A stretch of 64,000 nucleotides of DNA from Chloroflexota bacterium (GCA_034717495.1 JAYELL010000001.1:66649-130648); one strand, 5' to 3'; shown: positions 6,104-45,272, counted from the stretch's first letter. The notes: a model not told the origin generated them from the letters alone. A program made the numbers and translations.

Positions 6104-6240
6104 AGGGCATGATATCCCAACTACGGAGCCTTGCCACGCGTGACGCCGCCCCACGGGATATCATGCCCCTGGGTACCCGCCGACGCCCGGCCACACGTGA
6201 CGACGCCCCATGGGATATCTTGTCCCCTGGGTACCCGGTG
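6104..6240 (+). promoter_or_regulatory. hairpin plus tandem ~55-bp palindrome-rich direct repeat between the GH38 and epimerase genes; operator-like
   Basis: gggcatgatatccc (6106-6119) is the reverse complement of gggatatcatgccc (6161-6174). Two ~85%-identical copies 'cac(g/a)cgtgacg(c/a)cgcccca(c/t)gggatatc(a/t)tg(c/t)ccctgggtaccc' each carry the palindromes CACGCGTG/CACACGTG and GGGTACCC. Confidence 0.5.
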
Positions 6241-6264
6241 CCTGTCATCAAGGAGATCATCACC

Positions 6265-7074: not shown

Positions 7075-7078
7075 GCAG

Positions 7079-11923: not shown

Positions 11924-13156
11924 ATGCTAAGTTCGCGTGAACGGGTGATGATGGCTGTTAACCACCGGGAGCCCGATCGCGTACCGATCGATCTGGGCGG
12001 CCATCGCTCGTCCGGGATCATGGCGATTGCCTACAATCAGCTGAAGCGGCAGCTGGGAATCGACTCGGGCGACATCTACGTCTACGATTTTCTGCAGCAA
12101 TTGGCGATTATCGAGCCTGAGGTGTTGGACCGCTTTGGCGTCGACACAATCGAAATGGGGCGCGGGTTTGCACTTGAGCCGGAAGACTGGCAGGATTGGG
12201 TGTTGCCTGACGGGACCCCGTGCAAGATTCCCTCCTTCATTCACCCTGTTCGCGAAGGCAATGATTGGTACGTCTACCACGAGGATGGCACTCGAATCGC
12301 GGTTCAGAAAGAGAGCTGTTTATATGTGGAGCAGACCTGTTTCCCGCTTGCTGAGAGCGACGATCAGCTCTTTGACGATCTGGCAACGCCCCTGGAAAGG
12401 GTCATGTGGGCAGCCGTGGGTACCCCTCCGGCGCCCATTGGCTACGACGAACAGGGGCTGCAACAACTGGCTGCCGGGGCGAAGGCTCTGCGCGAGTCGA
12501 GCGATCGGGCCATAATCGGACTCTTCGGCGGGAACATCTACGAGTTGCCCCAGTGGCTCTTCAGCATGGAAAACTTTTATTACCTCATGGGCGCGGAGCC
12601 ACAGCGAGTACACCGGCTGTTGGACCAACTGGTAGCCATGCACTTGGAGAACCTGGAGAAGTTCCTGTCAGCGGTTGGGCCCTACATCGACATCATTCTT
12701 TTCGGCGACGACCTGGGTATGCAGAGTGGCCCCCAGTTCTCGCCTCGCATGTTCGAGACCTACTTCCAGCCTCGTTACACTCTGATGTGGGAAACGGCCA
12801 GACGCCTTGCCGATGTCAAGGTAATGCTGCATTGCTGCGGCAGTATCACGCGGTTATTGCCCGGCCTGATCGAAGCGGGGTTGGATATCATTCAGCCTGT
12901 CCAGACCAACGCACGGGATATGGAACCTGACCGGCTCAAGCGCGAGTTTGGCAAGGATATCTGTCTCTGGGGCGGTGGATGTGACACACAGCAGGTGTTG
13001 CCCTGCGGGTCACCCGAGGAGGTGGCCGAGAATGTTCGTCAGAACGTAGAGATCCTGGCGCCGCAAGGCGGCTACGTATTTCAGCAGATTCATAACGTGA
13101 TGGCCGATGTTCCGCCCGAAAATATCGTCGCCATGCTGGATGCTGTTAACCCCTGA
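11924..13156 (+). CDS. uroporphyrinogen decarboxylase (URO-D/MtaA) family protein
   Basis: N-terminus ERVMMAVNHREPDRVPIDLGG matches the URO-D family opening (ERVxAALxGxxxDRVP). C-terminal core FSPRMFETYFQPRY...VMLHCCGSITRLLPGLIEAGLDIIQPVQ...ICLWGG...PQGGYVFQQIHNV. Confidence 0.7.
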   Translation: MLSSRERVMMAVNHREPDRVPIDLGGHRSSGIMAIAYNQLKRQLGIDSGDIYVYDFLQQLAIIEPEVLDRFGVDTIEMGRGFALEPEDWQDWVLPDGTPCKIPSFIHPVREGNDWYVYHEDGTRIAVQKESCLYVEQTCFPLAESDDQLFDDLATPLERVMWAAVGTPPAPIGYDEQGLQQLAAGAKALRESSDRAIIGLFGGNIYELPQWLFSMENFYYLMGAEPQRVHRLLDQLVAMHLENLEKFLSAVGPYIDIILFGDDLGMQSGPQFSPRMFETYFQPRYTLMWETARRLADVKVMLHCCGSITRLLPGLIEAGLDIIQPVQTNARDMEPDRLKREFGKDICLWGGGCDTQQVLPCGSPEEVAENVRQNVEILAPQGGYVFQQIHNVMADVPPENIVAMLDAVNP

Positions 13157-13169
13157 GAACGGAGGCTTC

Positions 13170-14405
13170 ATGGCTGGAGCACAACGCGGGAATTCCAGAT
13201 TGCTCATCGCCTTGGCGTTCCTGAGCTTCATCGCAATGGGTCTGTTTGTCGGCTTGATGGGCGTGGCCTGGCCATCTATTCGCCTGAGCTATGGCATCCC
13301 TCTCGATGCCATAGGGGCTTTGTTTCTGTTTTCCATGGCCGCATCTCTGATCTTTAGCTTCAGTAGTGGCCGTCTGATAGCTGGCGTCGGATTAGGTGTC
13401 CTTCTGTTAATCGGCGGAATCCTGGCCTCTCTGGGTTTTTTGGGATACGCGGCAGCGCCCGCCTGGTGGACGATGATTCTGGCCGCGGCCATCGCCTCGG
13501 CGGGCACCACACTCATAAACACCGGCCTCAATACCTACTTCGCCATCATTTCCACGGCAAGTCTCATGAGCTGGCTCCACGCCAGCTTTGGTCTGGGCGC
13601 TACCATCAGTCCGATCGTGATGGCTGCTATGCTGAATGCCGGATATTCCTGGCGCTGGGGTTTCGCCTTCGTGGCACTCTGTTTCGCTGTTTTGTCCCTC
13701 CTCTACCTCTTCACCCGCAGGCACTGGCCTCTGCCAGAGCACAAGGCCTCCGACCAATCCACCGACGTACCGGTGCAGTCCAGCTACCGGGACAGCCTGA
13801 AACTTGCAGGCGTCTGGCTGAGCCTGTTGCTTTTTGCCGCCTTTACCGGCATGGAGGGGACCGCGGGCCAGTGGCCCTATGTGCTTTTCACCGAATCACG
13901 CGCTATAGATCCTGTCGTCGCCGGCCTGTGGGTCAGTATCTTTTGGGCCAGCATCACGATGGGCCGGCTGTTCTTTGGCGCGATCGTCGGTCGAACGGGC
14001 ACCGTCCCACTGATTCGCGCTTGCGGCGTGCTGATCGTCGCTGGATCGGCTCTGCTCTGGTGGAATCCCAGCAATACACTCAGTTTCGCAGGCCTCATCC
14101 TGATCGGTTTCGCTGCGTCCCCGTATTTCCCGGTGCTTGCCTCGGAAACACCCAGATTGTTTGGCCAGGAGAACGCCGCCAACATAATCGGATTCCAGAT
14201 TACTGCCGTTCGTCTGGGATTGGCTATCGTGCCGGCTTCCGTCGGGGTTCTGGCCCGCGCCGCCGGCCTGGAGACCATTGGCTTGTCGATGTTTGCAATT
14301 GCCGTTGCGGTTGTCGTATTATATGAGTTGACCCTGCGCACCACGGCGCGTGCCGAAACGGCGCTGCCCGAAGGCGAGGGGAGTTATGGAAAGGAACTAG
14401 CATGA
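13170..14405 (+). CDS. MFS transporter
   Basis: About 12 predicted TM helices; Gly/Ala-rich hydrophobic profile. The start at 13170 (RBS ggagg) follows the previous stop. Confidence 0.75.
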   Translation: MAGAQRGNSRLLIALAFLSFIAMGLFVGLMGVAWPSIRLSYGIPLDAIGALFLFSMAASLIFSFSSGRLIAGVGLGVLLLIGGILASLGFLGYAAAPAWWTMILAAAIASAGTTLINTGLNTYFAIISTASLMSWLHASFGLGATISPIVMAAMLNAGYSWRWGFAFVALCFAVLSLLYLFTRRHWPLPEHKASDQSTDVPVQSSYRDSLKLAGVWLSLLLFAAFTGMEGTAGQWPYVLFTESRAIDPVVAGLWVSIFWASITMGRLFFGAIVGRTGTVPLIRACGVLIVAGSALLWWNPSNTLSFAGLILIGFAASPYFPVLASETPRLFGQENAANIIGFQITAVRLGLAIVPASVGVLARAAGLETIGLSMFAIAVAVVVLYELTLRTTARAETALPEGEGSYGKELA

Positions 14406-15460
14406 CCAATTTATTGAAGGTAGGAGTTATCGGTGTCGGTGGTATCGCCAAATGGCACATGCCAGGATGGCAGGCATCTGAACATGCCGAGGTCGTTGCA
14501 GGCAGTGATATCGCCGGGGATGTGCTCGCTGGCTGGGGTGCAGAGTTTTCTGTCGACCGGCTCTACACCGATCCGGCGGATCTCTTTGCTGATCCAGACA
14601 TTGACATCATCGACATTTGCACGCCCAATATGTCCCACACGCCCCTGGTGATTGCGGCGCTGGACGCGGGAAAAAACGTCATCTGCGAGAAGCCGTTGGC
14701 TGCCACACCGGGGGAGATCGAGCAGATGATTGAGGCCCGCGATCGTTCCGGAAAACTTTTGATGACCGCACAACATTTCCGCTTCAAGGGTGTATCTCAG
14801 ACCATGAAGCAGGAGATCGAGGCGGGTGCGCTGGGAGATGTGTATCACGCGCGCAGCTGGCAATTGCGACGCAATGGCTTGTTTGTGCGGCCCAGTTTTA
14901 CGCGCAAGGAGTTCAGCGGGGGTGGCCCCTGTATCGACATCGGTGTACATATCCTCGACCTGTCGCTTTGGTTGATGGGCAATCCCCGGCCTGTGGCAGT
15001 GAGCGGTGTGGCCTGGGCGCCGTTGGCCCATCACGACAGGGCTTTTGCCAGTTGGACTGGCGAACTTATCCGCCCCGATTTCGATGTCGAGGACTATGCC
15101 GCCGCTTTCGTCAGATTCGACACCGGTGCCACGTTGATTCTTGAAGTGAGCTGGCTGCTGCATCACGATATCGAAGGGGAGGATTCTCAAGTGTGGCTCT
15201 ACGGCACCGAAGGTGGATGCCATTGGCCCAAGGCTCTGTTTCTCGAAACCAACTACGATTCAAAACAATTTTACAATCGCACGCTCAAGTTGACCGGGGA
15301 TGCCATGGAACCTCACGGGCTGGAGTGTGTGGCCTTTGCCGAGGCTGTGGCGGAAGGCAGGCCCTCACCCGTGCCGGCCGAACAGTCTCTTCAGGTCATG
15401 ACCATTTTGGATGGCATCTATCGCAGCCAGGAGACTGGACGCGAAATCTGGTTCGAATAA
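14402..15460 (+). CDS. Gfo/Idh/MocA family oxidoreductase
   Basis: VGVIGVGGIAKWHMPGW Rossmann N-terminus, CEKPLA motif; 352 aa. Confidence 0.8.
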   Translation: MTNLLKVGVIGVGGIAKWHMPGWQASEHAEVVAGSDIAGDVLAGWGAEFSVDRLYTDPADLFADPDIDIIDICTPNMSHTPLVIAALDAGKNVICEKPLAATPGEIEQMIEARDRSGKLLMTAQHFRFKGVSQTMKQEIEAGALGDVYHARSWQLRRNGLFVRPSFTRKEFSGGGPCIDIGVHILDLSLWLMGNPRPVAVSGVAWAPLAHHDRAFASWTGELIRPDFDVEDYAAAFVRFDTGATLILEVSWLLHHDIEGEDSQVWLYGTEGGCHWPKALFLETNYDSKQFYNRTLKLTGDAMEPHGLECVAFAEAVAEGRPSPVPAEQSLQVMTILDGIYRSQETGREIWFE

Positions 15461-15464
15461 AGGA

Positions 15465-16475
15465 ATGACAATTATGTTACGCACCGCAATGCTCGGCGTT
15501 GCCCATGTCCACGCCAATGGCTACGCCCGTCAGATTATCGAACATCCCGAAGCGCAGATCGTTTGTGTCTGGGATGACCAGGCTGACCGGGGAACGGCGG
15601 CCGCCGCCAGGTATGGAGTCCCGTTCGCCGATGACCTGGAGGCCCTTTTGAGTCGCCAGGATGTGGATGGTGTAGTGGTCAACGCGCCCACCGACCAGCA
15701 CCCTGAGATTCTAATAGCCGCAGCCGCTCATGGCAAACATATCTTCACCGAAAAAGCCCTCACGATCGCGACAGCCGACGCCGACCGGGTTGTCGACGCC
15801 GTCCACGCCAGTGGCATTAAGTTCATGATCTCCCTGCCAAGACGTACCTGGCCGGAAAGCCTGTTTTTCAAACAGGTGCTCGACGAGGGTTGGTTGGGCC
15901 GCGTCACCATGATGCGCGCGCGCCTGGCCCACCCCGGCGCGCTGGATCGATGGTTCAGCGGGCCGACCGCCTGGTTTGGCGACAGGGAGCAAGCGGGAGG
16001 CGGTGCATTGTTCGACCTGGGCTGTCACATCGTCGATCTGATGGGCTGGTTTCTCGGTGAGCCTGCCAGCGTCGTGGCAGTGACTCAGAATTTCAGCGGC
16101 GAATATGACATCGACGACCAGACCGTGGCCATCGTGCAGTTCAAGCAAGGTGCCCTGGGAATCCTGGACTGCACCTGGGTCCATCGGGCGGGCCCAAATC
16201 CTATTGAGATCTACGGCACGGAAGGCTACGCGGGCTATGATGGCCGGCGCGAGTCTATCCAGTTGATCAGCAACGAACTGCAGCCTGAGGGGATTCGCGG
16301 CAGCATTCACCCTCTGGAACTACCCGAGGCGCTGCCCTCTCCCATGGATCAGTGGATCAGCGCCGTGCTGCACGATACACCGATGACCATTGGCATCGAG
16401 GACGGCCGAAATCTTACGCGGCTCATGGAAGCGATCTACCAAGCTGCTGACAGTGGCTGCCAGGTTGTGGTTTGA
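15465..16475 (+). CDS. Gfo/Idh/MocA family oxidoreductase
   Basis: MLGVAHVHANGYARQI...TEKALT motif with dimerisation domain. The start could alternatively be the ATG at 15474. Confidence 0.75.
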   Translation: MTIMLRTAMLGVAHVHANGYARQIIEHPEAQIVCVWDDQADRGTAAAARYGVPFADDLEALLSRQDVDGVVVNAPTDQHPEILIAAAAHGKHIFTEKALTIATADADRVVDAVHASGIKFMISLPRRTWPESLFFKQVLDEGWLGRVTMMRARLAHPGALDRWFSGPTAWFGDREQAGGGALFDLGCHIVDLMGWFLGEPASVVAVTQNFSGEYDIDDQTVAIVQFKQGALGILDCTWVHRAGPNPIEIYGTEGYAGYDGRRESIQLISNELQPEGIRGSIHPLELPEALPSPMDQWISAVLHDTPMTIGIEDGRNLTRLMEAIYQAADSGCQVVV

Positions 16476-16527: not shown

Positions 16528-18249
16528 ATGCCTTTCCCGGCAATCGACACATCTCTCGTCCGCACCTACGCGCTGTCGGAACGACCGAGCCTGGTGGCCC
16601 TTGACCACCTTATCACACCGGAAATGCCGGTGCCGCCATTCGACAACCCGGAACTGGTCGAAGTAGCTACGCGAATCGTGGCTGCGCGCCAGGCGGGACG
16701 GCCTGTGATCTGGATGATCGGTGCTCATGTTGTGAAGCGTGGTCTGGCTCCGGTGCTCATCGACCTGATGCGGCGGGGCGTGATTACCCATCTGGCCAGC
16801 AATGGCGCAGCGCCGATCCATGACTTTGAGATTGCCTTGCTGGGCAATACCAGCGAGGATGTGTCCACAAGTCTTGAGGATGGCAGTTTCGGCATGGCGG
16901 AGGAAACGGGCGCTTTCATGAACCGGGCAATCCAGGCAGGCGCCCGCAGTGGTATCGGAGTTGGCGAGGCCCTGGGCCAATGGATTGCAGGGCATGATCG
17001 TTTTCGCTTCCGGGATCAGAGCCTGCTTTACTCTGCCTTCCACCTTGGAATCCCCTATACGGTGCATGTTGCGATTGGCACAGACATCATCCACCAGCAC
17101 CCGGAATGTGATTTCGCGGCCCTCGGTTGGGCCAGTGGTCAGGACTTCAAGGTCTTCACCAGTTCGGTCAGTCAACTGGAGGGTGGAGTCTTCTGTAACT
17201 TCGGTTCAGCGGTGATAGGTCCGGAGGTCTTCCTGAAGGCCCTTTCCATTGCTCGCAATCTGGGGCATAGGGTGCAGGTCTTCACTACGGCGAACTTCGA
17301 TATATTGCCCCTGGAGCAAGACTATCGTAAGCCCTCAACCGACGACCAGCCGACCTACTATTATCGACCGAAGAAGAATATTGTTATCCGGCCTACCTCC
17401 ATGGGTGGACGTGGCTACCACATCGTCGGTGATCACCGGGATACCATACCTAATTTGCATCATGAGGTAGTTCAAGGGCTCGCCGGTACGACCCTGCCCA
17501 ACCCACTGGATCGACGAAATGCAGCATTCGAAGGAGCTGGCGACCTGGAGATGCAATTTCCCAGGGCGGCCGCGTGCCTGTTGGGGGCGATCGAACGGCA
17601 ACCTGCTCTTGAGCCGGTGACGACCGCACTGATCGATGCTTTTCGTGTAGTAAATCTGGCTGAATCGACCGGTGGCACGCTTTTTCTCTGCGGAAACGGC
17701 GGAAGCATGGCAGACGCGCTGCACATTTCCGGCGAGCTACTGAAATCCTACGCCAGGAAACGATCTTTGGAGCAAGGCAGGTGCGATCGCTTGCTTCAGC
17801 AGCCCGATGGGGAACTGTTGGCTCGAAACCTGGAGCCTGGCCTGCGGGCAGTGGTTCTGGGCATCAACCCGTCGCTGGCCAGCGCCGTCGCCAACGACAT
17901 GCCCGATCGTGATATGAACCTGGCTCAGGAGTTGATGGCCCTGGCTCGTCCAGGCGACGTGCTGTTGGGCATCAGCACAAGCGGCAATGCCCGAAATGTG
18001 GCCTATGCCGCGCAGACTGCCCGCGCCCTCGGCGTCCATGTAATCGCTCTTACCGGCGAGGCCGGGGGCCTGCTCGCCGGCCTCGCCGATGTGGCCATCA
18101 AGGTTCCAGCTCAGCGCACCGACCGGGTCCAGGAGTTGCACATCCAGTGCTATCATACCCTGTGTGAAATGCTGGAGGAGCAGTTTTTTGGCGAGGAGGT
18201 TGGGCCATCGCAGGGATGTGTCCATCAACCGTTGGCCCTGTCACCTTGA
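16528..18249 (+). CDS. fusion protein: N-terminal deoxyhypusine-synthase-like (DHS-like NAD-binding) domain and C-terminal GmhA-type SIS domain (sedoheptulose-7-phosphate-isomerase-like)
   Basis: C-terminal ~190 aa is collinear with GmhA: LFLCGNGGSMADALHISGELL...VLLGISTSGNARNV...IALTGEAGG...VPAQRTDRVQELHIQCYHTLCE. N-terminal ~380 aa shows the DHS-like pattern (VIWMIGAHVVKRGLAPVLIDLMRRGVITHLASNGAAPIHDFEIALLG, compare IFLGYTSNLVSSGLRE..VDVLVTTAGGIEEDFIK). The domain assignment of the N-terminus is inferred from memory. Confidence 0.5.
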   Translation: MPFPAIDTSLVRTYALSERPSLVALDHLITPEMPVPPFDNPELVEVATRIVAARQAGRPVIWMIGAHVVKRGLAPVLIDLMRRGVITHLASNGAAPIHDFEIALLGNTSEDVSTSLEDGSFGMAEETGAFMNRAIQAGARSGIGVGEALGQWIAGHDRFRFRDQSLLYSAFHLGIPYTVHVAIGTDIIHQHPECDFAALGWASGQDFKVFTSSVSQLEGGVFCNFGSAVIGPEVFLKALSIARNLGHRVQVFTTANFDILPLEQDYRKPSTDDQPTYYYRPKKNIVIRPTSMGGRGYHIVGDHRDTIPNLHHEVVQGLAGTTLPNPLDRRNAAFEGAGDLEMQFPRAAACLLGAIERQPALEPVTTALIDAFRVVNLAESTGGTLFLCGNGGSMADALHISGELLKSYARKRSLEQGRCDRLLQQPDGELLARNLEPGLRAVVLGINPSLASAVANDMPDRDMNLAQELMALARPGDVLLGISTSGNARNVAYAAQTARALGVHVIALTGEAGGLLAGLADVAIKVPAQRTDRVQELHIQCYHTLCEMLEEQFFGEEVGPSQGCVHQPLALSP

Positions 18250-18406
18250 GCGGAAGTGCCTGATAGCTCATTGGACACGGAAAGTTGTTAGCGAAAGGTC
18301 CCAATCATGTGGGGCGAGATGCTTCGCTAGTCGCGCGTACGCGTGGTGTGCGACCTGTTCCACCGCTCAGCTTGACACGAGCCCACCACCCAGGAGAAGT
18401 TGAACC

Positions 18407-19363
18407 ATGCAACCACGAGATCGTTTCATCGCCGCCCTGGAGCGACGTCCCTTTACGGGCCGGGTACCCCATTTTGAACTGGTTTTTTATCTGACCATGG
18501 AGGCATTCGGCAGGGTTCATCCCGGACACCGAAGTTATCACCAGTGGATGCAGATGGATGAGGAGGAACGCCAGTTGCACCGGGTCGATATGGCCGGTCT
18601 TTATATCGCCACGGCAGAACGCTATGAGCACAGCGCCATCTTTCTCCATCCCAATCCAGACTCGCTGGAAGAGACCATTCGTCTGGTCGATCTTGTTCGG
18701 GAGCGTACCGGTGACCGCTACTTCCTCATGCGGCACGGGGACGCTACCTTCAGCATTCCCGACGGCACCACGATGGTGGATTTCGTCTACCGACTGGCCG
18801 ATGAGCCAGACAAGGTCAAAGCTGAGGCCCAGGAAAATGTAAACCATGCTCTTGAGCTCGCGGAGCAGCTGGCGAAACATGGAGAACTCGACGGATTCGC
18901 ACTCTGTGCGGATTACTGCTTCAACAGCGGGCCCTTTCTGAGTCCCAGGATGTTCTCGGAATTCATCACGCCCTATCTCACACAGCTTGTTCGCGGTTAT
19001 CGCCAACTGGGTTTCTACGTCATCAAACATACTGACGGCAACATCATGCCGATTATCGACGATCTGTTGGAGGGCGAACCCCATGCGCTGCATTCTCTGG
19101 ATCCGCAAGCCGGAATCGACATCGCCCAGGTTAAGCGGGATTTCGGCCATCGGGTCTGCCTGATTGGCAACGTCAATTGCGGGCTGTTGGATACCGGTAC
19201 CGAGGAAGAAGTCATCGAATCGGCCAGCTATGCGTTGAGGCACGGCATGCCCGGCGGAGGTTACATCTTTTCCACCAGCAATTGCATCTACACCGGCATG
19301 CGTCTCTCCCGCTACGAGTTGATGCTGGACGTCTGGCGCCGCGAGGGCAATTATGACGCGTAG
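18407..19363 (+). CDS. uroporphyrinogen decarboxylase (URO-D/MtaA) family protein, second paralog
   Basis: RDRFIAALERRPFTGRVPHFEL N-terminus. Strong C-terminal collinearity with URO-D/MtaA (FLSPRMFSEFITPY...IKHTDGNIMPIIDDLLEGEPHALHSLDPQAGIDIAQVKRDFGHRVCLIGNV...PGGGYIFSTSN). Preferred over the overlapping antisense ORF 18305-19243. Confidence 0.7.
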   Translation: MQPRDRFIAALERRPFTGRVPHFELVFYLTMEAFGRVHPGHRSYHQWMQMDEEERQLHRVDMAGLYIATAERYEHSAIFLHPNPDSLEETIRLVDLVRERTGDRYFLMRHGDATFSIPDGTTMVDFVYRLADEPDKVKAEAQENVNHALELAEQLAKHGELDGFALCADYCFNSGPFLSPRMFSEFITPYLTQLVRGYRQLGFYVIKHTDGNIMPIIDDLLEGEPHALHSLDPQAGIDIAQVKRDFGHRVCLIGNVNCGLLDTGTEEEVIESASYALRHGMPGGGYIFSTSNCIYTGMRLSRYELMLDVWRREGNYDA

Positions 19364-19371
19364 CGCGTAGA

Positions 19372-20430
19372 ATGAATCCTATGAAAAAACATCTATCGAC
19401 CGCTCGTCTGCAGGATATCCTCGATCGTTTCGGCGAGCTGCAAGTCGGCGTTATCGGTGATCTTGCACTCGATGCTTACTGGTATGCCGATATGACCCAG
19501 TCCTATCTTTCCCGCGAGACACCGCTTTTTCCACGGCCCGTGGTGCGCGAAGTGTACGCGCCCGGCGCGGGCGCCAACGTGGCCGACAACCTGGCGGCTC
19601 TCGGTGTGCGCAAGGTTGTCGCATTCTCCGTCATCGGTGATGACTGGCGCGGCCAACTCTTGCGACGGGAATTGACCGGGCGCGGTATCTCCGTCGAACA
19701 GCTGGTGGTCTCGGATCAACGAACGACCAGCTGCTACGTCAAACCGATCTTGATGGGCTTTGACTCGCAACAAGAGGACCCGCGTCTTGATTTCAGCAAC
19801 GCTGTCCCGCTCGATGGTCCGTCGGTGGAAGCGTTGATCGATCGGATTTCCAGGGAAATAACAAATCTGGACGCGCTGCTGGTTGCCGATCAATTCGAGC
19901 TGAATGGCATTATCGCGGACCCGGTTCTCGACGCGCTCAACCAATTGGCCGCCGATCATCCAGCTACCCACTTTGTTGTGGATTCGCGCCAGCGAATCGG
20001 CTTGTTCAGCCACATGGTGCTCAAGCCCAACTGGGTGGAGGCGGGGGCAGCAATTTACCCCCACCGTGACCCGCGGGATCTGAGCCAGGAGCAACTCGTT
20101 GAGGTCGGGAAACTATTGAGCCAGCGCAGCAGCCGGCCTGCTTTCATCACATTGAGTAACCGGGGCGCTCTGGTTTGCACGGAGGCTGAACAGGTCAGGG
20201 TACCGGCAGGACCTGTCCAGCCACCACTGGATCCGGTGGGCGCAGGCGATACATTTGTCGCTGCGCTGGCGGCATCTCTTGCAGCTGGGGCCGCGCCGGC
20301 CGAGGCGGCCGCGGTCGCCAATCTGGCGGCTTCCATCACCGTCGAAAAACTCAACCAGACCGGCACCGCTACACCCGAAGAGATCGTGGTTCGCTACGAA
20401 TTGGCCAGCACTCAGGAGGATTCCCGTTGA
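19372..20430 (+). CDS. PfkB-family sugar kinase resembling D-glycero-beta-D-manno-heptose-7-phosphate kinase (HldE domain I / HldA-like)
   Basis: VGVIGDLALDAYWYADMTQSYLSRETPLFPRPVVREVYAPGAGANVADNLAALG parallels HldE [46 protein letters not shown]. C-terminal PfkB motif DPVGAGDTFVAALAASLAAG. Confidence 0.7.
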   Translation: MNPMKKHLSTARLQDILDRFGELQVGVIGDLALDAYWYADMTQSYLSRETPLFPRPVVREVYAPGAGANVADNLAALGVRKVVAFSVIGDDWRGQLLRRELTGRGISVEQLVVSDQRTTSCYVKPILMGFDSQQEDPRLDFSNAVPLDGPSVEALIDRISREITNLDALLVADQFELNGIIADPVLDALNQLAADHPATHFVVDSRQRIGLFSHMVLKPNWVEAGAAIYPHRDPRDLSQEQLVEVGKLLSQRSSRPAFITLSNRGALVCTEAEQVRVPAGPVQPPLDPVGAGDTFVAALAASLAAGAAPAEAAAVANLAASITVEKLNQTGTATPEEIVVRYELASTQEDSR

Positions 20431-21284
20431 CCTTATCCCCAATCATCACTGCCGGCGAACTGCCGCCCCTGCCATGGCTGGAGGTCATCAATCCTTTGGC
20501 CCGTCTCGGGCAGGTGCGCCACGCCCTGTTCGACTTCGACGGTACTATCTCGGTCATTCGCAGGGGTTGGGAGCAGATCATGATTCCCTTGATGGTTGAG
20601 ATGATCTGCGAAGATCAGCCACCGTCGCCGGAGATCGAAGCGCAGGTGGAAGACTATGTGGATCTTTCGACCGGTATCCTGACAATCAAGCAGATGGAAT
20701 GGCTCGAACAAGCCGTGGTGCGGCACGACCTTGCCAGCAGAAAGTTGACTGCCCGCCAATACAAAACGATCTACAACGAACGATTGCTTCAACCGGTGCG
20801 AGCGCGCATGGCCCTGATGGAAGGAAGCGGCGATTCCCGCGAGACCCTGATGATTGCCGGAGTCCGGGCATTCCTGGAAGACCTTCAAGAGCGGGGCGTG
20901 AGTCTCTATCTGGCCAGCGGCTCCGATCACGTGTACGTGGTGGAAGAAGCCACAGCTCTGGGTGTTGCCGACTTTTTTGATGGACACATCTACGGGGCGC
21001 GCGATGACACAGAAGCCTATTCCAAGGATCGAATCATCTACCGCATTCTGGACGACCATGATCTGGCCGGCGAGCAGTTATTGGTTGTAGGGGATGGTCC
21101 GGTGGAGATCCGTCATGCCCGGGACAGGGGTGCCCTGGCCCTCGGTATTGCCGCCGACGAGGAACTGCGGCAGGGGCTCGATTCCCGTAAACGCCAACGG
21201 TTGTTGCTGGCCGGTGCCGACCTGCTGGTGACCGATTTTTTGCACCACGAGCAGTTGGCCGGGATTTTGGCCGGCGACGGGTAG
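20427..21284 (+). CDS. HAD superfamily phosphatase
   Basis: Motif I ALFDFDGTIS (DxDGT), motif II LASGS, motif IV VVGDGPVE..D; 285 aa. Translationally coupled to the upstream kinase by a 4-nt overlap. Confidence 0.65.
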   Translation: MTLSPIITAGELPPLPWLEVINPLARLGQVRHALFDFDGTISVIRRGWEQIMIPLMVEMICEDQPPSPEIEAQVEDYVDLSTGILTIKQMEWLEQAVVRHDLASRKLTARQYKTIYNERLLQPVRARMALMEGSGDSRETLMIAGVRAFLEDLQERGVSLYLASGSDHVYVVEEATALGVADFFDGHIYGARDDTEAYSKDRIIYRILDDHDLAGEQLLVVGDGPVEIRHARDRGALALGIAADEELRQGLDSRKRQRLLLAGADLLVTDFLHHEQLAGILAGDG

Positions 21285-21547: not shown

Positions 21548-24079
21548 ATGCTCGACTTGAACGGATCCTGGAAACTCATGGACTTTGCACCCGGCCTGGG
21601 TGTGGCCGCCGGCGCGTTTAGCAGCGACTTCGATGATAGCGACTGGCCGCCGGTCGGCGTGCCGGGCGATGTGCACACTGCCCTGGTCCGGCAGGGACGC
21701 ATCGAACCACCCTTTTTTAACATGAATGTCGAGACCTGCCAATGGGTCGAGGACCAGGAGTGGTGGTACCGGCGAAGCTTTCAGATCGATGAACCAGTCC
21801 TGTCGCCAGGCTCGCGTTTCATTTTGCGATTCGATGGCCTTGACACATTTGCCACGATTTATCTAAACGGCGCCGAAATAGGCCAACATGCCAATATGTT
21901 CATCGGCAAGGAACTGGATGTGACCAGCGATCTCCGGCCGGGTGATAACCTGCTGGCCGTCTGCTTCGACCCGGTGATGCAACAAATAGGCGATCACTCG
22001 CTGGACGGGCAGTGGGCCAGCTATGGCGCCGAGCGTGTCTGGGCTCGCAAGGCCCAGTACAACTTCAGTTGGGACTGGGCACCTCGCCTTCTCAGCGCAG
22101 GCATCTGGCAGGATGTGATACTTAAGCGTTTTGAAGGTGCCCGGTTGGCGGATGTGTTTTTCAAGACCGTCATGTTCAACGAAGATCTGGCGCGTGTTGC
22201 CATCGATATTGACATAAACAGATGGACGAATAACCGCGAACTCGGCGTCGAGATCGTTCTGAGTCGAGGCGAACAAGAGTTGGTTGCAGCGGCACCTGTG
22301 TCCGGGAACCGGATAGAAATGGCGCTTGATGTTTTCGACCCGGCCATTTGGTGGACCCACGATCTGGGTGAGCCTGCACTTTACGACCTGGAGGTGCGTC
22401 TGCTGGGGCAGGAGGGGCTTCTGGACGTTTACCGGGACCAGGTTGGTATCCGTACCATCGAGGTAGACCAATCCCTCGATCCGGAGGAACCGGGCACCCG
22501 GTTCTTTACCTTCGTCCTTAATGGCGTGCCCCTCTTTGCCCGGGGTGCGGACTGGATTCCGGCCGATTCCTTCGTTGCCCAGGTGGATGAGGATCGCTAC
22601 CGCGACCTTCTGAGGCTGGCGGTGGAAGCCAACATGAACTGCCTGCGGGTGTGGGGTGGTGGCATCTACGAGAAACGGGCCTTCTATCAACTGTGCGACC
22701 AGTTTGGTCTGCTGGTCTGGCAGGATTTCATGTTTGCCTGCGCGCTCTATCCCGATTTCGATCCAGACTTCGTGGCGCAGATCGAAGTGGAGGCAGATGC
22801 CGTGGTTCGCCGTTTGCGCAACCATCCCTCCATCGCCATGTGGTGTGGCAGCAATGAAAACATATGGATCGACGACCTGGTCAACTGGGATGAGCCAGGC
22901 CGCGACTTCCCCGGAAAAACGATCTACCACCAGGTTTTACCGGACATCGTCGATCGATTGGACGGCACCCGTTTGTACTGGCCCTCCAGCCCCTTTGGCG
23001 GCAACGATCACAACGACGAGCGTCAGGGAAACCGGCACAATTGGCAGGTCTGGCATGGTGCTGAGTTGCCGCGTCGCTTTGGCGAGGAACCCCGGCGTGA
23101 TTTCTCGCCGGACGGCGTTTCCTTCCGGCACTATGGGCACGACATGGCTCGATTTATCAGCGAATTCGGCATGCATGCTTCGCCGGTGCTGGAAACTTTG
23201 CGGCGCAATGTTCCCGAAACCGGGCTGCGTTTCGCAAGCCCCGAGCTGCTCTATCGCAACAAGGACCGGCCAAAGGACAAGGGAAACATGTTGATGCGGG
23301 CCCACACGGGCTTACCCGCGTCCCTTCAGGAGTACGTCGATTTCTCCATGATTGCCCAGGCGGAGGGGCTCAAGTTCGCTCTTGAACATTACCGGCGGCG
23401 CAAGTTTCACTGCAGCGGCACTCTCTTCTGGCAACTGAACGACTGCTGGCCCGGCCTGAGTTGGAGCGTTCTTGACTACTATCACTTTGCGAAAGCCGGC
23501 TATTTTTACGCAAAACGGGCCTATGCCCCGCTGATGGCCTCCTTTCAGTCGGAAGTCGACGGCAGTGTTTCCTTGTGGGTTGTCAATGACACGTTGGCTG
23601 AGTTGCATGACTCGGCCCTGTGGACGCTGGCGACATTTGATGGCGAAACCATTCATCAGGGATCGCAAGGCTATTCCCTGGACGCAAACGTATCCCGCCT
23701 GGTGACCAGTATCCCTGCCGAGCTTTTGCGCCGGGCCGATCCCAGGGCAAGCTTTCTCCATGTTCGCTCGCAAGGCAGCCTGTTTCCAGATAACCGGCAC
23801 TTCTTTGTGGAAATCAAGGATCTGCTTCGGCCGCAAGCAAACCTGGAAGTAGGTATCAGCGAGGCGGAAAGGGGGCTGGATGTCCAGATATCCAGCGACC
23901 TGTTCGCCTACTTCGTTCAAGTCGTGGTCCCCGTCCAAGGCACACGCTTCTCTGACAACTACATCGATCTACTGCCGGGAGAGAAACGGCTTATTCAGGT
24001 CCGTCACGCCGGCGACCGTGCCTTGACGAAGGATGACGTTGTCGTATCCTGTCTCCCCGGAACCAGCGCCACGATATGA
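21548..24079 (+). CDS. beta-mannosidase, glycoside hydrolase family 2
   Basis: LNGSWKL..DSDWPPVGVPGDVHTALVRQGRIEPPFFNMNVETCQWVEDQEWWYRRSF matches the GH2 beta-mannosidase N-terminus (GxWxF..W..ITVPG..H..L...G.I.DP..G.NE....WVE...WWYR.F). 843 aa. Confidence 0.8.
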   Translation: MLDLNGSWKLMDFAPGLGVAAGAFSSDFDDSDWPPVGVPGDVHTALVRQGRIEPPFFNMNVETCQWVEDQEWWYRRSFQIDEPVLSPGSRFILRFDGLDTFATIYLNGAEIGQHANMFIGKELDVTSDLRPGDNLLAVCFDPVMQQIGDHSLDGQWASYGAERVWARKAQYNFSWDWAPRLLSAGIWQDVILKRFEGARLADVFFKTVMFNEDLARVAIDIDINRWTNNRELGVEIVLSRGEQELVAAAPVSGNRIEMALDVFDPAIWWTHDLGEPALYDLEVRLLGQEGLLDVYRDQVGIRTIEVDQSLDPEEPGTRFFTFVLNGVPLFARGADWIPADSFVAQVDEDRYRDLLRLAVEANMNCLRVWGGGIYEKRAFYQLCDQFGLLVWQDFMFACALYPDFDPDFVAQIEVEADAVVRRLRNHPSIAMWCGSNENIWIDDLVNWDEPGRDFPGKTIYHQVLPDIVDRLDGTRLYWPSSPFGGNDHNDERQGNRHNWQVWHGAELPRRFGEEPRRDFSPDGVSFRHYGHDMARFISEFGMHASPVLETLRRNVPETGLRFASPELLYRNKDRPKDKGNMLMRAHTGLPASLQEYVDFSMIAQAEGLKFALEHYRRRKFHCSGTLFWQLNDCWPGLSWSVLDYYHFAKAGYFYAKRAYAPLMASFQSEVDGSVSLWVVNDTLAELHDSALWTLATFDGETIHQGSQGYSLDANVSRLVTSIPAELLRRADPRASFLHVRSQGSLFPDNRHFFVEIKDLLRPQANLEVGISEAERGLDVQISSDLFAYFVQVVVPVQGTRFSDNYIDLLPGEKRLIQVRHAGDRALTKDDVVVSCLPGTSATI

Positions 24080-25290
24080 CAGATCGGCCCGTAGCAATAG
24101 ACCTGTCGCTGGCAGAAGAGCCGCTGGCGACATCCGGCGAAAGCGACACATTCCAACTCGATCAGGTGCTCACCATCGGCGTGGGGCACCTGACCCATGA
24201 TATCTTTACCGCATTTCTTGCACCCCTGCTTCCTCTGATCCAGACCAGGCTCGGCCTGGGCTACGCTATGGCCGGAAGCCTGGCGATTTTCGCCCAGCTG
24301 CCCAGTCTTCTCAACCCCTTCATCGGTTACATGGCGGACAGGGTCAGCGTACGCTATTTCGTCATTCTGGCGCCAGGTGTCAGCGCGACTCTTTACAGCC
24401 TGATAGGGCTGGCGCCAAGCTACGCTGCATTGGCCATTCTCTTGTTCGCAGCCGGTATCAGTATTGCTGCCTTTCACGCCCCCGCGCCGGCCATGGTTGC
24501 CAAGGTGTCTGGTCCCCGGGTCGGCACGGGAATGAGTGTCTTTATGGCTTCTGGCGAGTTGGCCCGGGCCATTGGTCCGATCTTCGCTGTGGCAGGGGTG
24601 GCGTGGTTCGGTTTAGAGGGCATATGGCGATTGGCCGTGCTGGGTTGGCTGGTATCTGCCTTCCTTTTCGTGCGCCTTCGGCGGGTTCCGGCGACGCCAA
24701 GGACCCCGGGAAACTCCGACATGGCTGACTTCTGGCATACAGCACGGCGTGTGTTTCCCTCTCTTACCTGGCTGGTTAGCGGACGAATCTTCATGTTGGC
24801 GGCAGTGACAACCTATTTGCCCATCTATATGAGCGATGAACGGGAGGCCGGCCTCTGGATGGCAGCAGCAGCCCTGACGATTCTGGAAGCCGCGGGGGTA
24901 GCCGGCGCGTTGCTGGCCGGTACGCTGAGCGACCGGCTGGGGCGTAAGCGGGTCCTGCTGGTGCTCATGAGCGTGGCGCCGCTTCTTTTGTTCGCTTTTG
25001 TGTCTGGCCCCGAGTGGCTGGCAGTACCCCTGCTGGTCGCTCTGGGGTTTACAGCTATTTCCCCGCAGCCGGTGCTGTTGGCTCTGGTGCAGGATCAGTT
25101 TCCCAGAAACCGCGCCCTGGCCAACGGCACCTTCCTGGCCATCAGCTTTGTCGTCCGGGCCGCGGGCATCTGGCTCGTTGGTGTTATTGCCGACAGCTAC
25201 GGGCTGAACAGTGCCTTTGCCTTCAGCGCCTTCTTTGCCTTGTTCAGTATTCCTTCAGTGTTTCTGTTGCCGTCGAAAGAGGTTGAATGA
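24076..25290 (+). CDS. MFS transporter
   Basis: 12-TM hydrophobic profile; overlaps the GH2 stop by 4 nt (translational coupling). Confidence 0.75.
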   Translation: MTDRPVAIDLSLAEEPLATSGESDTFQLDQVLTIGVGHLTHDIFTAFLAPLLPLIQTRLGLGYAMAGSLAIFAQLPSLLNPFIGYMADRVSVRYFVILAPGVSATLYSLIGLAPSYAALAILLFAAGISIAAFHAPAPAMVAKVSGPRVGTGMSVFMASGELARAIGPIFAVAGVAWFGLEGIWRLAVLGWLVSAFLFVRLRRVPATPRTPGNSDMADFWHTARRVFPSLTWLVSGRIFMLAAVTTYLPIYMSDEREAGLWMAAAALTILEAAGVAGALLAGTLSDRLGRKRVLLVLMSVAPLLLFAFVSGPEWLAVPLLVALGFTAISPQPVLLALVQDQFPRNRALANGTFLAISFVVRAAGIWLVGVIADSYGLNSAFAFSAFFALFSIPSVFLLPSKEVE

Positions 25291-25778: not shown

Positions 25779-26891
25779 CTACGCCGTTGACGTCAATAGA
25801 ACCTCTCGAATCCGTCCGGCATACGCTGCGCTTTCCGCATCACCGGTAACAAAGCTGATCTGATCTGGCGATTTTACACCCAGGCCCAACTCCACCGCCC
25901 GGGCCAGCTGCTCCTGTTCGAACACGGATCCGCGCTCGACGTCGCGGGTGGTCTCAAACATGCGCAAGATGGCAACACCGGCAGCATCGATGGCAACGCG
26001 GTCGGTGCCCGCCAGAATGACTCCGGTTTCGGCCTTGGTGCCGGTGGCCGGTCCTCCCTTGACGAAGGCCTCCACGCCATCCAGAACGATAAGGGCCGGA
26101 TCATAGGCCGTATTGATTTCGGCGATCATCTTGCGCTGGTCGCTCGTGCCGTGCAGCTCGTTCATGAAGTTGTAAGAATCGTGATGTTTGGCGACGAACC
26201 CCACCGAATTCTTTAGCGAAAGGGTGAAATGCCCACCGTAGCGGTGGGTCTTCAGATTGCAGGTCTGCACCACGCATTCGGCATCCCGAAGCATCCTTGG
26301 TACAGGAAACCCCCGTGCCCAGTGGAACCCGTCGCCATCGATGATGGTCCAGGCATCGGCCGGCAGGTCCTCAAAGGCCACCGCCTCTGCACCAAATTCA
26401 TCAACTAATTCAAAGACACCTTTTTGCTCCATTACCCGATGGGTATTGCCCATGCCACTGCGATCAGCCAGGGTGATGGCGTGGGCCTCCATGTCGCTCA
26501 GGCTGGCAAGCAGTATTCGTAAAACGTCATCATGCGTGGAGCCGGGCGCGGGGTCAGCGCTGTTGAAGTTTGGTTTGAACAGCACATGACGGCCGCGAAC
26601 AGGGTTGATGCCCAGCAGCTCAAGCGCCTGGCGTACACCTGCTGCTCGATCGGTGGTGCTGACGAGAGCGATGGTTGCCAATGATTGATCAGGCGCGGCC
26701 GCGGGCGAAGATTGGGCTTTCGGCTTAGCGGAGGTTCCGGAAGAAGCCGGCTGGCCGGAGGCAGCGGGCGTATCGGTGGATCTGGCTGTCTCCCCGGGCG
26801 GAATCGGGTATGTGCAGGCGTCGGTCAGTGGCGCCAGGACCGCGGCGCTGCCCAGCGCGATCAGGTTCCTGCAGAATTGTCGGCGATTCAT
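25779..26891 (-). CDS. DUF362 domain protein with twin-arginine (Tat) signal peptide
   Basis: MNRRQFCRNLIALGSAAVLA Tat motif. Central VLFKPNFNSADPAPGSTHDDVLRILL..ITLADRSG matches DUF362. The Ser/Pro/Ala-rich linker after the signal suggests a lipoprotein or extracytoplasmic location. Start placed at the internal Met with RBS aaaggtgg. Confidence 0.55.
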   Translation of the reverse strand: MNRRQFCRNLIALGSAAVLAPLTDACTYPIPPGETARSTDTPAASGQPASSGTSAKPKAQSSPAAAPDQSLATIALVSTTDRAAGVRQALELLGINPVRGRHVLFKPNFNSADPAPGSTHDDVLRILLASLSDMEAHAITLADRSGMGNTHRVMEQKGVFELVDEFGAEAVAFEDLPADAWTIIDGDGFHWARGFPVPRMLRDAECVVQTCNLKTHRYGGHFTLSLKNSVGFVAKHHDSYNFMNELHGTSDQRKMIAEINTAYDPALIVLDGVEAFVKGGPATGTKAETGVILAGTDRVAIDAAGVAILRMFETTRDVERGSVFEQEQLARAVELGLGVKSPDQISFVTGDAESAAYAGRIREVLLTSTA

Positions 26892-26987
26892 CGGAGCACC
26901 ACCTTTCGATCCGAATCCGCGAAGTACTCGATAGTGCTTACCAGACCCACTGATCACGGTTTCCGGTGGCAGTTCCGGCGAGACCGA

Positions 26988-28208
26988 CTACGGTGCCCCC
27001 GAACCAGGACCAAGATGCTTCAACATGACAATTGGGTCTGAACCACTGGGGTTGTGGATGGTGACCCCTTCCTGCGCAGCCCGGTAGGAGACGAAGTACT
27101 CGTCGTAGGTCAATTGTCCGAAGCGAATCAAGGCCGGCGTCTCAATGGGCCACCTCTGGGCCGCTGGCTGGGACGACCCGGTCCCCATCGAGCCATGCCC
27201 TTGCACCACGATCAAACCGTAGGGACCGCTGTCCCGAATCGTAACCGTACGCCCTGGCAGAACGGTGAGTTCCTTGGCGGCGAAATATTCGTTGCCGTAA
27301 GTGATCCAGTTCTCCACGTACCCGGCCTCTTTCATCTCCTCCGGCGGTTTCACCGGAAGCGGATTCCTGAAAAATACCGCTTTGAAGTCGGGAATCGTGT
27401 TGATCTCCCAGTCCAGCATGGAAATGATGTAATCCATATCCTGTTTGTGCTTCTCGGGCACATGCATGACCAACTGCTCCCATCCGATGGGCATGTCGTT
27501 GGTCATCGACTCGAACATGGCATAGATATCGCTGGCCCACTGGGGCTCGTAGGTGCAGAGGCTTCCTGGTGCGTGCAACAGGCCCGGCGGTATGTACCAG
27601 CCTGTGCCCGTTTCCAGGCGATAGGCCCTGGACAGGTCGGTAATGCGGTTGTCCCCCTCGTTCCAGATTTCCAGGCAACGGATCACCTGTTCTTTGCTGG
27701 TTCCTGGCTCCAGGCCAAAGAAGGTGTGGGGGAAATCAGCGCCATAGTTGTTGAGTTGCGGCGGAAAGAAATAGGCCTCGGGTTTGGATTTCTGTCCCAC
27801 ATTGGCAGCGTGTTCCTCCATCTGATGCATGTGGTGGGGCAGTGGTCCTTTGTTGTCGAAGAACTTGGAGTAGATGGGCCAGCCGCCGTGTTTCTGCCAC
27901 ATGGCTTCGCCCAATAATTCAGCGCCCTCGTCCGCTACCAGGTCCGCCAACAGAACCCGCTGGGGATCGTCATTTTCCCCAGAAACCGCGTAACTCAAAC
28001 CTTCATTGGGAGTGGTCAACGGGCCGTTGTCCGCCCTGGTAGTGGATGACAACCAGCGCTCATCGATACCGCCCCGATGCGCACCGAAGGCGTAGTAGTC
28101 GTTTGGATGAAGTTTGATACGCCTGCCTGGAATGCAGAATACTCGAGGCACCCAGGTTGGTGCCAGCCGTAGAATACCCTTTCCTTGTTCAAGGATGTTG
28201 TTGGTCAT
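26988..28208 (-). CDS. bicupin-like protein, possibly a type-I mannose-6-phosphate-isomerase-like sugar isomerase
   Basis: Cupin motif 1-like GPLPHHMHQMEEHAANVG (G-x4-HxH-x3-E-x5-G) and motif 2-like GWYIPPGLLHAPG (PxG-x2-H). 406 aa is similar in size to ManA-type PMIs. The functional call is inference. Confidence 0.4.
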   Translation of the reverse strand: MTNNILEQGKGILRLAPTWVPRVFCIPGRRIKLHPNDYYAFGAHRGGIDERWLSSTTRADNGPLTTPNEGLSYAVSGENDDPQRVLLADLVADEGAELLGEAMWQKHGGWPIYSKFFDNKGPLPHHMHQMEEHAANVGQKSKPEAYFFPPQLNNYGADFPHTFFGLEPGTSKEQVIRCLEIWNEGDNRITDLSRAYRLETGTGWYIPPGLLHAPGSLCTYEPQWASDIYAMFESMTNDMPIGWEQLVMHVPEKHKQDMDYIISMLDWEINTIPDFKAVFFRNPLPVKPPEEMKEAGYVENWITYGNEYFAAKELTVLPGRTVTIRDSGPYGLIVVQGHGSMGTGSSQPAAQRWPIETPALIRFGQLTYDEYFVSYRAAQEGVTIHNPSGSDPIVMLKHLGPGSGAP

Positions 28209-31648: not shown

Positions 31649-31933
31649 AATTCTCTCCCTGGTTTGGATGGCGTTGAGGCTTCAGCCGGTTTCGTGTCTG
31701 ACCGACCAAAGCATACTGAACAATTGCCGTTTCGTACATGGATTGCTCCGATTATACCCGCGGCATGCTGATAGCGCAAAAAATCAGTTTCTCAGACCTG
31801 GGTTATTCCCGCAGATAGCGCATAGTCCCTGTGTATTCCCAGGCGGGATTTCATTTGACAGCGCGACACCGCTGTGTTATCATCTCTTTGCAACATCTGT
31901 TCAAGCCTGTTCATCTGTTCAAGTGAGGCGCCG

Positions 31934-32971: not shown

Positions 32972-33010
32972 AGGATTATCAGGATAACCTCCTGGAAGGG
33001 TAGTGGATTC

Positions 33011-34567: not shown

Positions 34568-34584
34568 CAGATGAAAGGAAGAAA

Positions 34585-36290: not shown

Positions 36291-36302
36291 AGGAAGTTCA
36301 GA

Positions 36303-45269: not shown

Positions 45270-45272
45270 CAT

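Follow-up and report, generated by a model that had tools for sequence, protein, structure and literature searches.

A GSU2086-family domain fused to a GmhA-type isomerase in a Chloroflexota sugar island: a putative heptose-phosphate module

We analysed a 64-kb stretch of DNA from a Chloroflexota bacterium (GCA_034717495.1, JAYELL010000001.1:66649-130648; hereafter 'the window', meaning this whole stretch) in which four genes at 16528-21284, an interval whose ends are exactly gene boundaries, encode a two-domain fusion protein, a URO-D/MtaA-like protein, a PfkB sugar-phosphate kinase and a HAD phosphatase. In the fusion protein, a domain of the GSU2086 family, related in fold to deoxyhypusine synthase (DHS) and to the LOR/SDH-type ornithine cyclodeaminases (OCDs), precedes a SIS domain of the GmhA type. 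Across many phyla, homology and gene context indeed link such a DHS/OCD-fold enzyme to an isomerase of the GmhA type, a kinase of the HldA type and a phosphatase that stands in the GmhB slot. The best explanation, which we put forward tentatively, is that the window encodes a lineage-specific version of a widespread five-function heptose-phosphate module.

[quoted passage not shown] The GSU2086-family domain may carry out a redox-neutral, transient oxidation and reduction of the heptose phosphate, most plausibly an epimerisation at the phospho-sugar level analogous to that of HldD on ADP-heptose. Its cofactor would be of a tightly bound nicotinamide type, as in DHS and the LOR/SDH-type OCDs, and could be NAD+ or a nickel-pincer derivative (nickel-pincer nucleotide, NPN, or nickel-pincer adenine dinucleotide, NPAD). 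The chemistry of the DHS family is a transient NAD+-mediated oxidation, and the superfamily as a whole transiently oxidises and reduces amines. The HldA-like kinase is predicted by homology to phosphorylate O1, the anomeric position, of the 7-phosphate of D-glycero-D-manno-heptose; the HAD-IA phosphatase, judging from its position and complementary distribution, would replace GmhB and remove the 7-phosphate to leave heptose-1-phosphate. Epimerisation fits the near-absence of HldD from the loci, as well as the fusions of the domain, which involve GmhA, kinase and phosphatase but seldom a nucleotidyltransferase. Lacking a nucleotidyltransferase and surrounded by mannosidase, ROK, transporter and oxidoreductase genes, the pathway of this Anaerolineae bacterium probably serves salvage or catabolism, fed by or feeding imported sugars of the manno or heptose type, and not lipopolysaccharide (LPS) synthesis. 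The preliminary description of this DNA had noted the lack of a nucleotidyltransferase, and no cytidylyltransferase-like open reading frame (ORF) was found in the window.

The isomerase, kinase and phosphatase

The C-terminal domain of the fusion adopts a GmhA-type SIS fold and closely resembles solved GmhA in structure; it matches Pseudomonas aeruginosa GmhA (1x92) at E = 1e-29 (phmmer) and is 41% identical to a characterised GmhA. Its score against TIGR00441 (126.3 bits) lies below the equivalog cutoff of 209.45, in part because a ~23-residue insertion splits the match in two. The GmhA motifs align (window/1x92: GDAQHFSSELL/ADALHISGELL; ISTSGNSANV/ISTSGNARNV; RIQEVHLLAIH/RVQELHIQCYH), and the His/Glu and Gln/His positions, which from GmhA structures we take to include the metal-binding and catalytic ones, are kept together with the STSGN phosphate loop. 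Identity to the stand-alone GmhA-like neighbours of the domain at other loci is 32-37%. For the kinase, domain I of HldE is the best PfkB subfamily (TIGR02198, 157.4 bits, versus 70.7 for ribokinase and 58.7 for 1-phosphofructokinase), although the score is below the equivalog-domain cutoff of 345. Its best match in the PDB is Burkholderia cenocepacia HldA (4e84), which aligns over the full length and shares the N-terminal GDxxLDxYW motif, and a continuous series of intermediates connects it with the canonical HldA/HldE of domain-bearing operons, to which it is 27-29% identical. The isomerase and kinase assignments of the preliminary description are accordingly upheld: the SIS domain is of the GmhA rather than a GlmS-like type, and the kinase groups with HldA/HldE rather than with ribokinase.

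The phosphatase required a qualification. Its best profile matches are to HAD-IA, phosphoglycolate-phosphatase-like proteins (best PDB match 2ah5, COG0546), and the GmhB/HAD-IIIA models (TIGR00213/NF006506) gave no match to it at E <= 0.01. We examined its distribution in 80 genome and 80 metagenome loci, in which ORFs were called by homology-weighted selection and searched with profiles made from the window proteins; neighbours were counted within 5 kb of the GSU2086-family domain at 165 loci, many of them on short contigs. A HAD-IA protein of the window's type occurs at 54 loci and a GmhB-type HAD-IIIA protein at 11, and none of the 165 has both. This mutual exclusion beside the domain is consistent with the HAD-IA phosphatase filling the GmhB slot by non-orthologous displacement. 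The gene may thus occupy the GmhB position, as had been proposed, but it is not a member of the GmhB family.

The other partners are distributed as follows: an HldA/HldE-type PfkB kinase at 86 of the 165 loci, a GmhA-like SIS protein at 63, a ROK kinase at 21 and a cytidylyltransferase-like ORF at only seven. HAD, domain and kinase usually come in this order, often with SIS and ROK after them.

In the window, the gene set, its boundaries and the insertion of the URO-D gene between isomerase and kinase are as first described. Translational coupling, which had been claimed for the whole trio, applies to the kinase/HAD junction only, where the TTG start of the HAD gene, preceded by AGGAGG, overlaps the TGA stop of the kinase gene (TTGA), whereas 157 nt separate the fusion from the URO-D gene and 8 nt the URO-D stop from the kinase. 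An Rfam scan of the whole window was without matches to any RNA element, which rules out a riboswitch explanation.

The GSU2086-family domain and its genomic contexts

Residues 6-312 of the fusion match the NCBIfam model NF052581 ('GSU2086 family') over positions 2-300 of 301, with 407.1 bits (E = 5e-122) for a cutoff of 250; Pfam holds no model for this domain. The preliminary description had not recognised this conserved family, known as a stand-alone protein and present in ADP-heptose/LPS-type operons, and had estimated at ~380 aa a domain that measures ~320-345 aa. Matches of the family profile concentrate on one ~65-residue segment (GaHviKvGlsp...nGAaaiHDfElAlvGaTs), over which it finds ArgZ (6juy) at E = 2.8e-7, AgrE (6lrf) at 7e-7 and 3c2q at 4e-5, whereas matches to DHS are weak (E = 0.015-0.03). 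Several family members also have weak matches to PF01916 (DS; E ~4e-4) and PF21570. The window domain itself stays below the PF01916 gathering score, reaches 21.4 bits versus 27 for PF21570 (a local match of 63 aa) and, with 16.5 bits for a cutoff of 410, is not a full-length member of TIGR00300. On profile evidence, its nearest characterised relatives are the LOR/SDH-type OCDs; the earlier label 'DHS-like' is correct at the superfamily level, but these cyclodeaminases are closer.

The likeness to the LOR/SDH-type OCDs (TIGR00300; 3c2q; the C-terminal domains of ArgZ and AgrE) consists of a significant profile match in the dinucleotide-binding segment, an HD[IF]E...G.T motif common to both and the location of some GSU2086 members near lar genes. 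However, only ~65 aa can be aligned by sequence, structural identity is 13-16%, and the cyclodeaminases have IHTGG where the GSU2086 family has GaHviK. The partners of the GSU2086 family are moreover sugar-phosphate enzymes and not arginine or ornithine genes, its substrate being presumably a sugar phosphate rather than an amino acid. From DHS it differs by the lack of significant sequence membership and of an eIF5A/spermidine context, and by different conserved active-site residues.

Conservation was counted over 166 domain sequences, whose overall identity is only ~45%. About 20 polar residues are (near-)invariant across phyla; the (near-)invariant positions include R19, G65, H67, H98, D99, E101, T108, E110, G122, H180, D206, E233, K237, N244, D258, R280 and R288. 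H67 is present in 163 of the 166 sequences, and position 70 is Lys in 122 and Arg in 43. LPS-type, Anaerolineae-type and lar-linked loci all show an identical pattern, which argues for one chemistry throughout the family and against a merely structural role.

A tandem GSU2086-GSU2086 protein from Cohnella (L049, 9971-11959) has a second copy without H67, K70 and H98, which on these residues looks like an inactive partner; such an active/inactive pair recalls the DHS heterotetramer of Trypanosoma brucei, and P0121 and P0124 are also tandem proteins.

The fusion had been called novel, which its distribution contradicts. A word-indexed search with the fusion returned more than 6000 significant matches. 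Each of the top 120 is a full-length fusion (61-76% identity); most come from metagenome-assembled genomes (MAGs) of Anaerolineae/Chloroflexi, and they are annotated only as 'SIS domain-containing' or 'phosphoheptose isomerase'. Among genomes, Anaerolineae MAGs match the window best (74% and 72%), which makes an Anaerolineae bacterium its most likely source; an exact look-up of the window protein in public assemblies returned nothing. When the N-terminal domain was searched exhaustively by itself, 2438 clusters (50% identity) were obtained, of which 517 lie below 1e-30; most are stand-alone proteins of 300-340 aa. Other architectures join the domain to PfkB, place it after HAD, place it after SIS (the reverse order) or repeat it in tandem, and one polypeptide (P0134) combines an ARMT1 phosphatase, a cytidylyltransferase and the domain. 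The family ranges over Chloroflexota, Planctomycetota, Verrucomicrobiota, Firmicutes, Nitrospirota, Acidobacteriota, Poribacteria, Latescibacterota, Thermodesulfobacteriota and some archaeal MAGs. Both the fusion architecture and the GSU2086 family are thus already in databases, and no function is assigned to them in the literature that we found, where the only mention of the family is in a transposon-sequencing (Tn-seq) table.

Two contigs binned as Nitrososphaerota/Crenarchaeota (L007, 6338-8023; L008, 72-1754) carry the same fusion, 63-64% identical, together with the kinase, the HAD gene, a cupin-type mannose-6-phosphate-isomerase-like gene and a GH78-like gene (GH, glycoside hydrolase family), which reflects either horizontal transfer or mis-binning. 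In a MAG labelled Akkermansia muciniphila (L033, 9962-12489), the domain, a monofunctional HldA-like kinase (332 aa) and GmhB stand in a row; the published 'HldE' of A. muciniphila (Amuc_0415, PMC9427033) may be such a kinase-only gene, in which case no gene would be assigned to the adenylyltransferase.

The domain also occurs in canonical heptose operons. At L130, the order is GT9 (glycosyltransferase family 9), ..., gmhA (204 bits), domain, hldA (TIGR02198, 380 bits), a LAGLIDADG insertion, gmhB, hldC (TIGR02199, 192 bits), GT2 and GT2, with hldA and hldC above their cutoffs; the insertion that splits hldA from gmhB is a homing-endonuclease ORF (12122-13072). At L099, GT2, Wzm and gmhA precede a bifunctional hldE, whose kinase domain is above cutoff (TIGR02198, 357 bits), and the domain. 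The Geobacter sulfurreducens genes hldE (GSU2085) and gmhA (GSU2087) flank GSU2086, and GSU2085, GSU2086 and GSU2087 show similar Tn-seq defects on electrodes (-3.1, -3.2 and -3.7; PMC5585712). Searches seeded with Escherichia coli rfaD, waaF and waaC detected a GT9 heptosyltransferase-like ORF at 11 loci and an HldD-like ORF at only one.

Since the domain co-occurs with the isomerase, the kinase, the phosphatase and the adenylyltransferase, it appears to be an extra component of heptose-phosphate metabolism and not a substitute for any of them. A role as the missing nucleotidyltransferase was rejected because the domain is found together with bifunctional HldE in L099 and Geobacter, with HldC in L130 and, within P0134, with a cytidylyltransferase domain; a role as GmhB substitute was rejected for its wrong fold and its co-occurrence with both phosphatase types. 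Compared with the canonical ADP-heptose pathway, the window likewise unites in one gene set an isomerase of the GmhA type, an anomeric kinase of the HldA type and a phosphatase step, and its relatives place the domain inside gmhA/HldA-HldE operons, complete with gmhA-hldA-gmhB-hldC and GT9 in L130. Unlike that pathway, it has neither adenylyltransferase nor HldD, its phosphatase is HAD-IA and not GmhB (HAD-IIIA), its GmhA has an additional enzyme of DHS/OCD fold as fusion partner, and the genes lie in a mannoside/sugar-uptake island of an Anaerolineae host.

Heptose biosynthesis is a well-mapped antibiotic target, and ADP-heptose is an innate-immune signal. If a conserved enzyme without assigned function accompanies gmhA and hldA/hldE across ten or more phyla, the textbook heptose pathway would be incomplete or have a widespread variant. 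For the Anaerolineae, the module points to an unexplored route linking mannoside/heptose scavenging with the pentose-phosphate pool.

A possible nickel-pincer cofactor

TIGR00300, a distant relative of the domain, is named nickel-pincer nucleotide-dependent ornithine cyclodeaminase by NCBIfam, and a cyclodeaminase of this type uses NPAD, according to Desguin 2025 as cited in PMC13524815. New nickel-pincer enzymes can be nominated from larB/C/E neighbourhoods without larA, the known ones being LarA-type racemases, one cyclodeaminase and one aldo-keto reductase family (PMC13524815). In our set, lar genes lie in or beside the module at six of ~170 loci, within the operon in L025, L168, L049 and L085 and within 10 kb in L052 (LarB 6 kb from the domain) and L057 (LarE and a nicotinate phosphoribosyltransferase ~7-9 kb away). 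In L049 (Cohnella sp. REN36), larC1-larB-larE diverge from HAD, DUF4432, the tandem domain protein, kinase, SIS and larC2, and all Lar scores exceed their cutoffs (LarE 353, LarB 283, LarC1 218 and LarC2 141 bits). In L025 (Ornatilinea apprima), an operon of HAD, domain, kinase, LarC (PF01969, E = 1.7e-60) and ROK faces an ABC importer, a domain-SIS fusion and a second ROK; this synteny is retained in L168 though the LarC proteins are only 48% identical. In L085, LarC is directly 5' of a fusion whose N-terminal domain is 67% identical to that of the window, followed by kinase and HAD. No LarA is found among the genes annotated around L025, L049 and L168.

The lar genes take up some 3 kb in perhaps a quarter of genomes; on these rough figures, chance should bring them near the domain much less than once in the ~2 Mb of flanks. 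Three more distant LarC contexts (L169, L170 and L171) have no module nearby, and the LarC link is therefore lineage-restricted. A 320-aa ORF without Pfam match near LarC in L171 proved not to be a GSU2086-family member.

These loci resemble those of the nickel-pincer enzymes (the LarA family and the aldo-keto reductase NphT, PMC13524815) in having LarB, LarC and LarE genes beside a candidate user enzyme and no annotated LarA, the candidate here coming from a superfamily that otherwise binds NAD. They differ in that the fold is unrelated, and the link to lar genes concerns a minority of loci and excludes the window. H67, as His ligand to Ni, and Lys at position 70, as tether, are candidate cofactor residues from their conservation. 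That the GSU2086 family is an unrecognised nickel-pincer (NPN/NPAD) class of DHS/OCD fold, epimerising heptose phosphates by hydride shuttling, is a real possibility but seems to us unlikely. If it were true, the family would supply a missing or alternative heptose step in bacteria and archaea, possibly as a non-orthologous substitute for HldD before nucleotide activation, and the window fusion would be a Rosetta-stone link of a nickel-pincer family to GmhA. If the lar link holds, sugar-phosphate chemistry would join the nickel-pincer list, which would help to explain genomes with larBCE and no larA.

The sugar island and alternative readings

The module of the window belongs to a catabolic-looking variant that, in Anaerolineae and Firmicutes, is accompanied by sugar importers, ROK kinases and glycosidases. 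Its gene orders include GH38, DHDPS-like, fusion, URO-D, kinase, HAD (L001/L002); substrate-binding protein, permeases, URO-D, GH2, fusion, kinase, HAD (L166); ABC importer, two URO-D genes, fusion, kinase, HAD, URO-D (L167); domain, kinase, GH38, HAD (L017); HAD-domain fusion, kinase, ..., GH2, SIS, ROK (L015); and a ribose-type ABC importer with ROK, SIS, domain, kinase, HAD (L009-L014). The same-strand Gfo/Idh/MocA, GH2 and GH38 flanks reported for the window are borne out by Pfam. The mannosidase context recurs (GH38 in L001/L002 and L017; GH2 in L015 and L166) but is not universal among relatives, and Gfo/Idh/MocA proteins are found near the module at 11 of 85 genome loci. The catabolic role first proposed gains from these recurrent mannosidase and sugar-uptake links, but the sequence is compatible with either direction.

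On a reading of this kind, the genes form a catabolic or salvage pathway for an imported heptose or manno-configured rare sugar: glycosidases would release the sugar, a transporter import it, a ROK kinase phosphorylate it and the GSU2086 domain epimerise it (e.g. L-glycero to D-glycero), after which GmhA in reverse would deliver S7P to the pentose-phosphate pathway, the kinase/phosphatase pair converting 1-phosphate and 7-phosphate forms. We regard this scheme as possible but somewhat doubtful. The ring of GH38, GH2, MFS, ROK and Gfo/Idh/MocA genes around the window module agrees with it, as do the sugar importers and ROK kinases adjoining the module in L009-L015, L025, L166, L167 and L168, the GH38 gene between kinase and HAD in L017, the GH2 gene inside the module in L015 and the scarcity of nucleotidyltransferase-like ORFs. 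However, the same highly conserved domain occurs in the clearly biosynthetic ADP-heptose/glycosyltransferase operons of L130, L099 and Geobacter, which weakens any purely catabolic reading, and a route to S7P requires neither anomeric kinase nor phosphatase, yet both are the domain's most conserved partners. We also know of no heptosidase or heptose transporter to anchor such a pathway.

Co-opted paralogues could instead serve a rare-hexose pathway, heptose not being involved in this lineage; the SIS domain would then be an isomerase of the mannose-6-phosphate (M6P)/fructose-6-phosphate (F6P) type, the PfkB kinase would form a 1,6-bisphosphate that the HAD enzyme trims, and the N-terminal domain would epimerise a hexose phosphate. 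The conversion of S7P to the 7-phosphate of D-glycero-D-manno-heptose is stereochemically the one-carbon homologue of that of F6P to M6P, mannosidases stand on the flanks, the sub-cutoff scores of all three enzymes would be explained, and the ROK kinases and epimerase-like gene of the island recall the logic of allose-type operons (E. coli alsK/alsE). Against this, identity to a characterised GmhA stands at 41%, a level typical of orthologues, the active-site motifs align, the kinase family grades continuously into above-cutoff HldA/HldE, and the identical active-site residues in the N-terminal domains of LPS-type and Anaerolineae-type loci argue for the same substrate class; we consider a hexose pathway quite improbable. 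Least probable is a non-catalytic domain, regulating or scaffolding GmhA as an oligomerisation platform or nucleotide sensor, with the lar genes a coincidence. The degenerate second copy in Cohnella and the absence of lar genes from the window would suit it, but so many (near-)invariant polar residues at such low overall identity typify an active site, stand-alone proteins make up most of the family, and three separate lineages have lar genes inside their operons.

The heptose-phosphate module that we prefer also has evidence weighing against it. Its epimerase step is proposed from fold and genomic context; glycoside hydrolases, importers and ROK kinases fit poorly with a purely biosynthetic heptose-1-phosphate product, for which no consumer was identified; and the interleaved URO-D-like gene and the Gfo/Idh/MocA genes have no assigned place in the scheme. 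Isomerase (126 of 209 bits), kinase (157 of 345) and phosphatase (no GmhB match) all remain below cutoff, and another manno-configured substrate, such as a hexose-6-phosphate, is therefore possible. As to the cofactor, lar genes are absent from the window's 64 kb and rare among the loci, most family members may simply use NAD+, and position 70, being Lys or Arg, speaks against a covalent thioamide tether of the LarA kind in every member.

The plus-strand sugar island spans ~2.9-25.3 kb of the window (table 1).

Table 1. Genes and domains of the four-gene module and of the surrounding sugar island (window positions).
Feature	Position	Strand	Remarks
GH38 alpha-mannosidase	2893-6093	+	Pfam
Ribulose-phosphate-3-epimerase (RPE)-like	6109-7074	+	
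Gfo/Idh/MocA oxidoreductase	7079-8221	+	
ROK-family sugar kinase	8292-9254	+	PF00480, E 2e-70
Glycyl radical enzyme, 824 aa	9209-11683	+	PF02901, E 8e-211; PF01228
URO-D-like gene	11924-13156	+	
MFS transporter	13107-14405	+	
Gfo/Idh/MocA oxidoreductase, first of two directly 5' of fusion	14402-15460	+	Pfam
Gfo/Idh/MocA oxidoreductase, second of two directly 5' of fusion	15411-16475	+	Pfam
Fusion, 573 aa: GSU2086-family domain joined to GmhA-type SIS domain	16528-18249	+	ATG start, GGAGA 7 nt upstream
N-terminal GSU2086-family domain (DHS/LOR-SDH OCD-like Rossmann fold); putative cofactor-dependent hydride-shuttling enzyme	16543-17463	+	
C-terminal GmhA-like S7P isomerase (SIS) domain	17581-18198	+	~23-aa insertion
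URO-D/MtaA-like TIM-barrel protein, 318 aa	18407-19363	+	PF01208, E 6.8e-19
HldA-like (HldE domain I-like) PfkB sugar-phosphate kinase, monofunctional	19372-20430	+	TIGR02198; PDB 4e84
HAD-IA-type phosphatase in GmhB position	20427-21284	+	PF00702, PF13419; DFDGT motif; AGGAGG Shine-Dalgarno
GH2 beta-mannosidase-like enzyme	21548-24079	+	Pfam
MFS transporter 3' of GH2	24076-25290	+	

URO-D genes adjoin the module in several Anaerolineae (L001, L003, L166 and L167), with up to three copies in L167. At L169, a URO-D/MtaA-like gene (6616-7734) is directly upstream of larB-larE...larC. Corrinoid proteins were not seen with the URO-D/MtaA-like genes. The glycyl radical enzyme of the window sits between the ROK kinase and the URO-D-like gene, with no activating radical-SAM enzyme identified near it, and L013 and L030 likewise have matches to glycyl radical enzymes near the module. 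The RPE-family protein, between the GH38 and Gfo/Idh/MocA genes, has an N-terminal extension of ~60 residues and, together with the ROK kinase of the island, resembles components of allose-type rare-sugar operons.

Immediately 5' of the GH38 gene, positions 1304-2698 (+) encode a 464-aa pentapeptide-repeat protein (PF00805, 10 stretches). On the opposite strand, shortly past the downstream end of the island, 25779-28208 (-) holds a DUF362 protein (392 aa) and then a 406-aa ORF without Pfam match. A second, separate sugar cluster at 31874-47882 (+) contains a SorC-type regulator, an FGGY kinase, DeoC-type and class II aldolases, a DRL-type oxidoreductase and a zinc-dependent alcohol dehydrogenase, as well as DUF6786, a fucose-isomerase-like protein and a twin-arginine translocation (TAT)-signal protein with an ABC permease.

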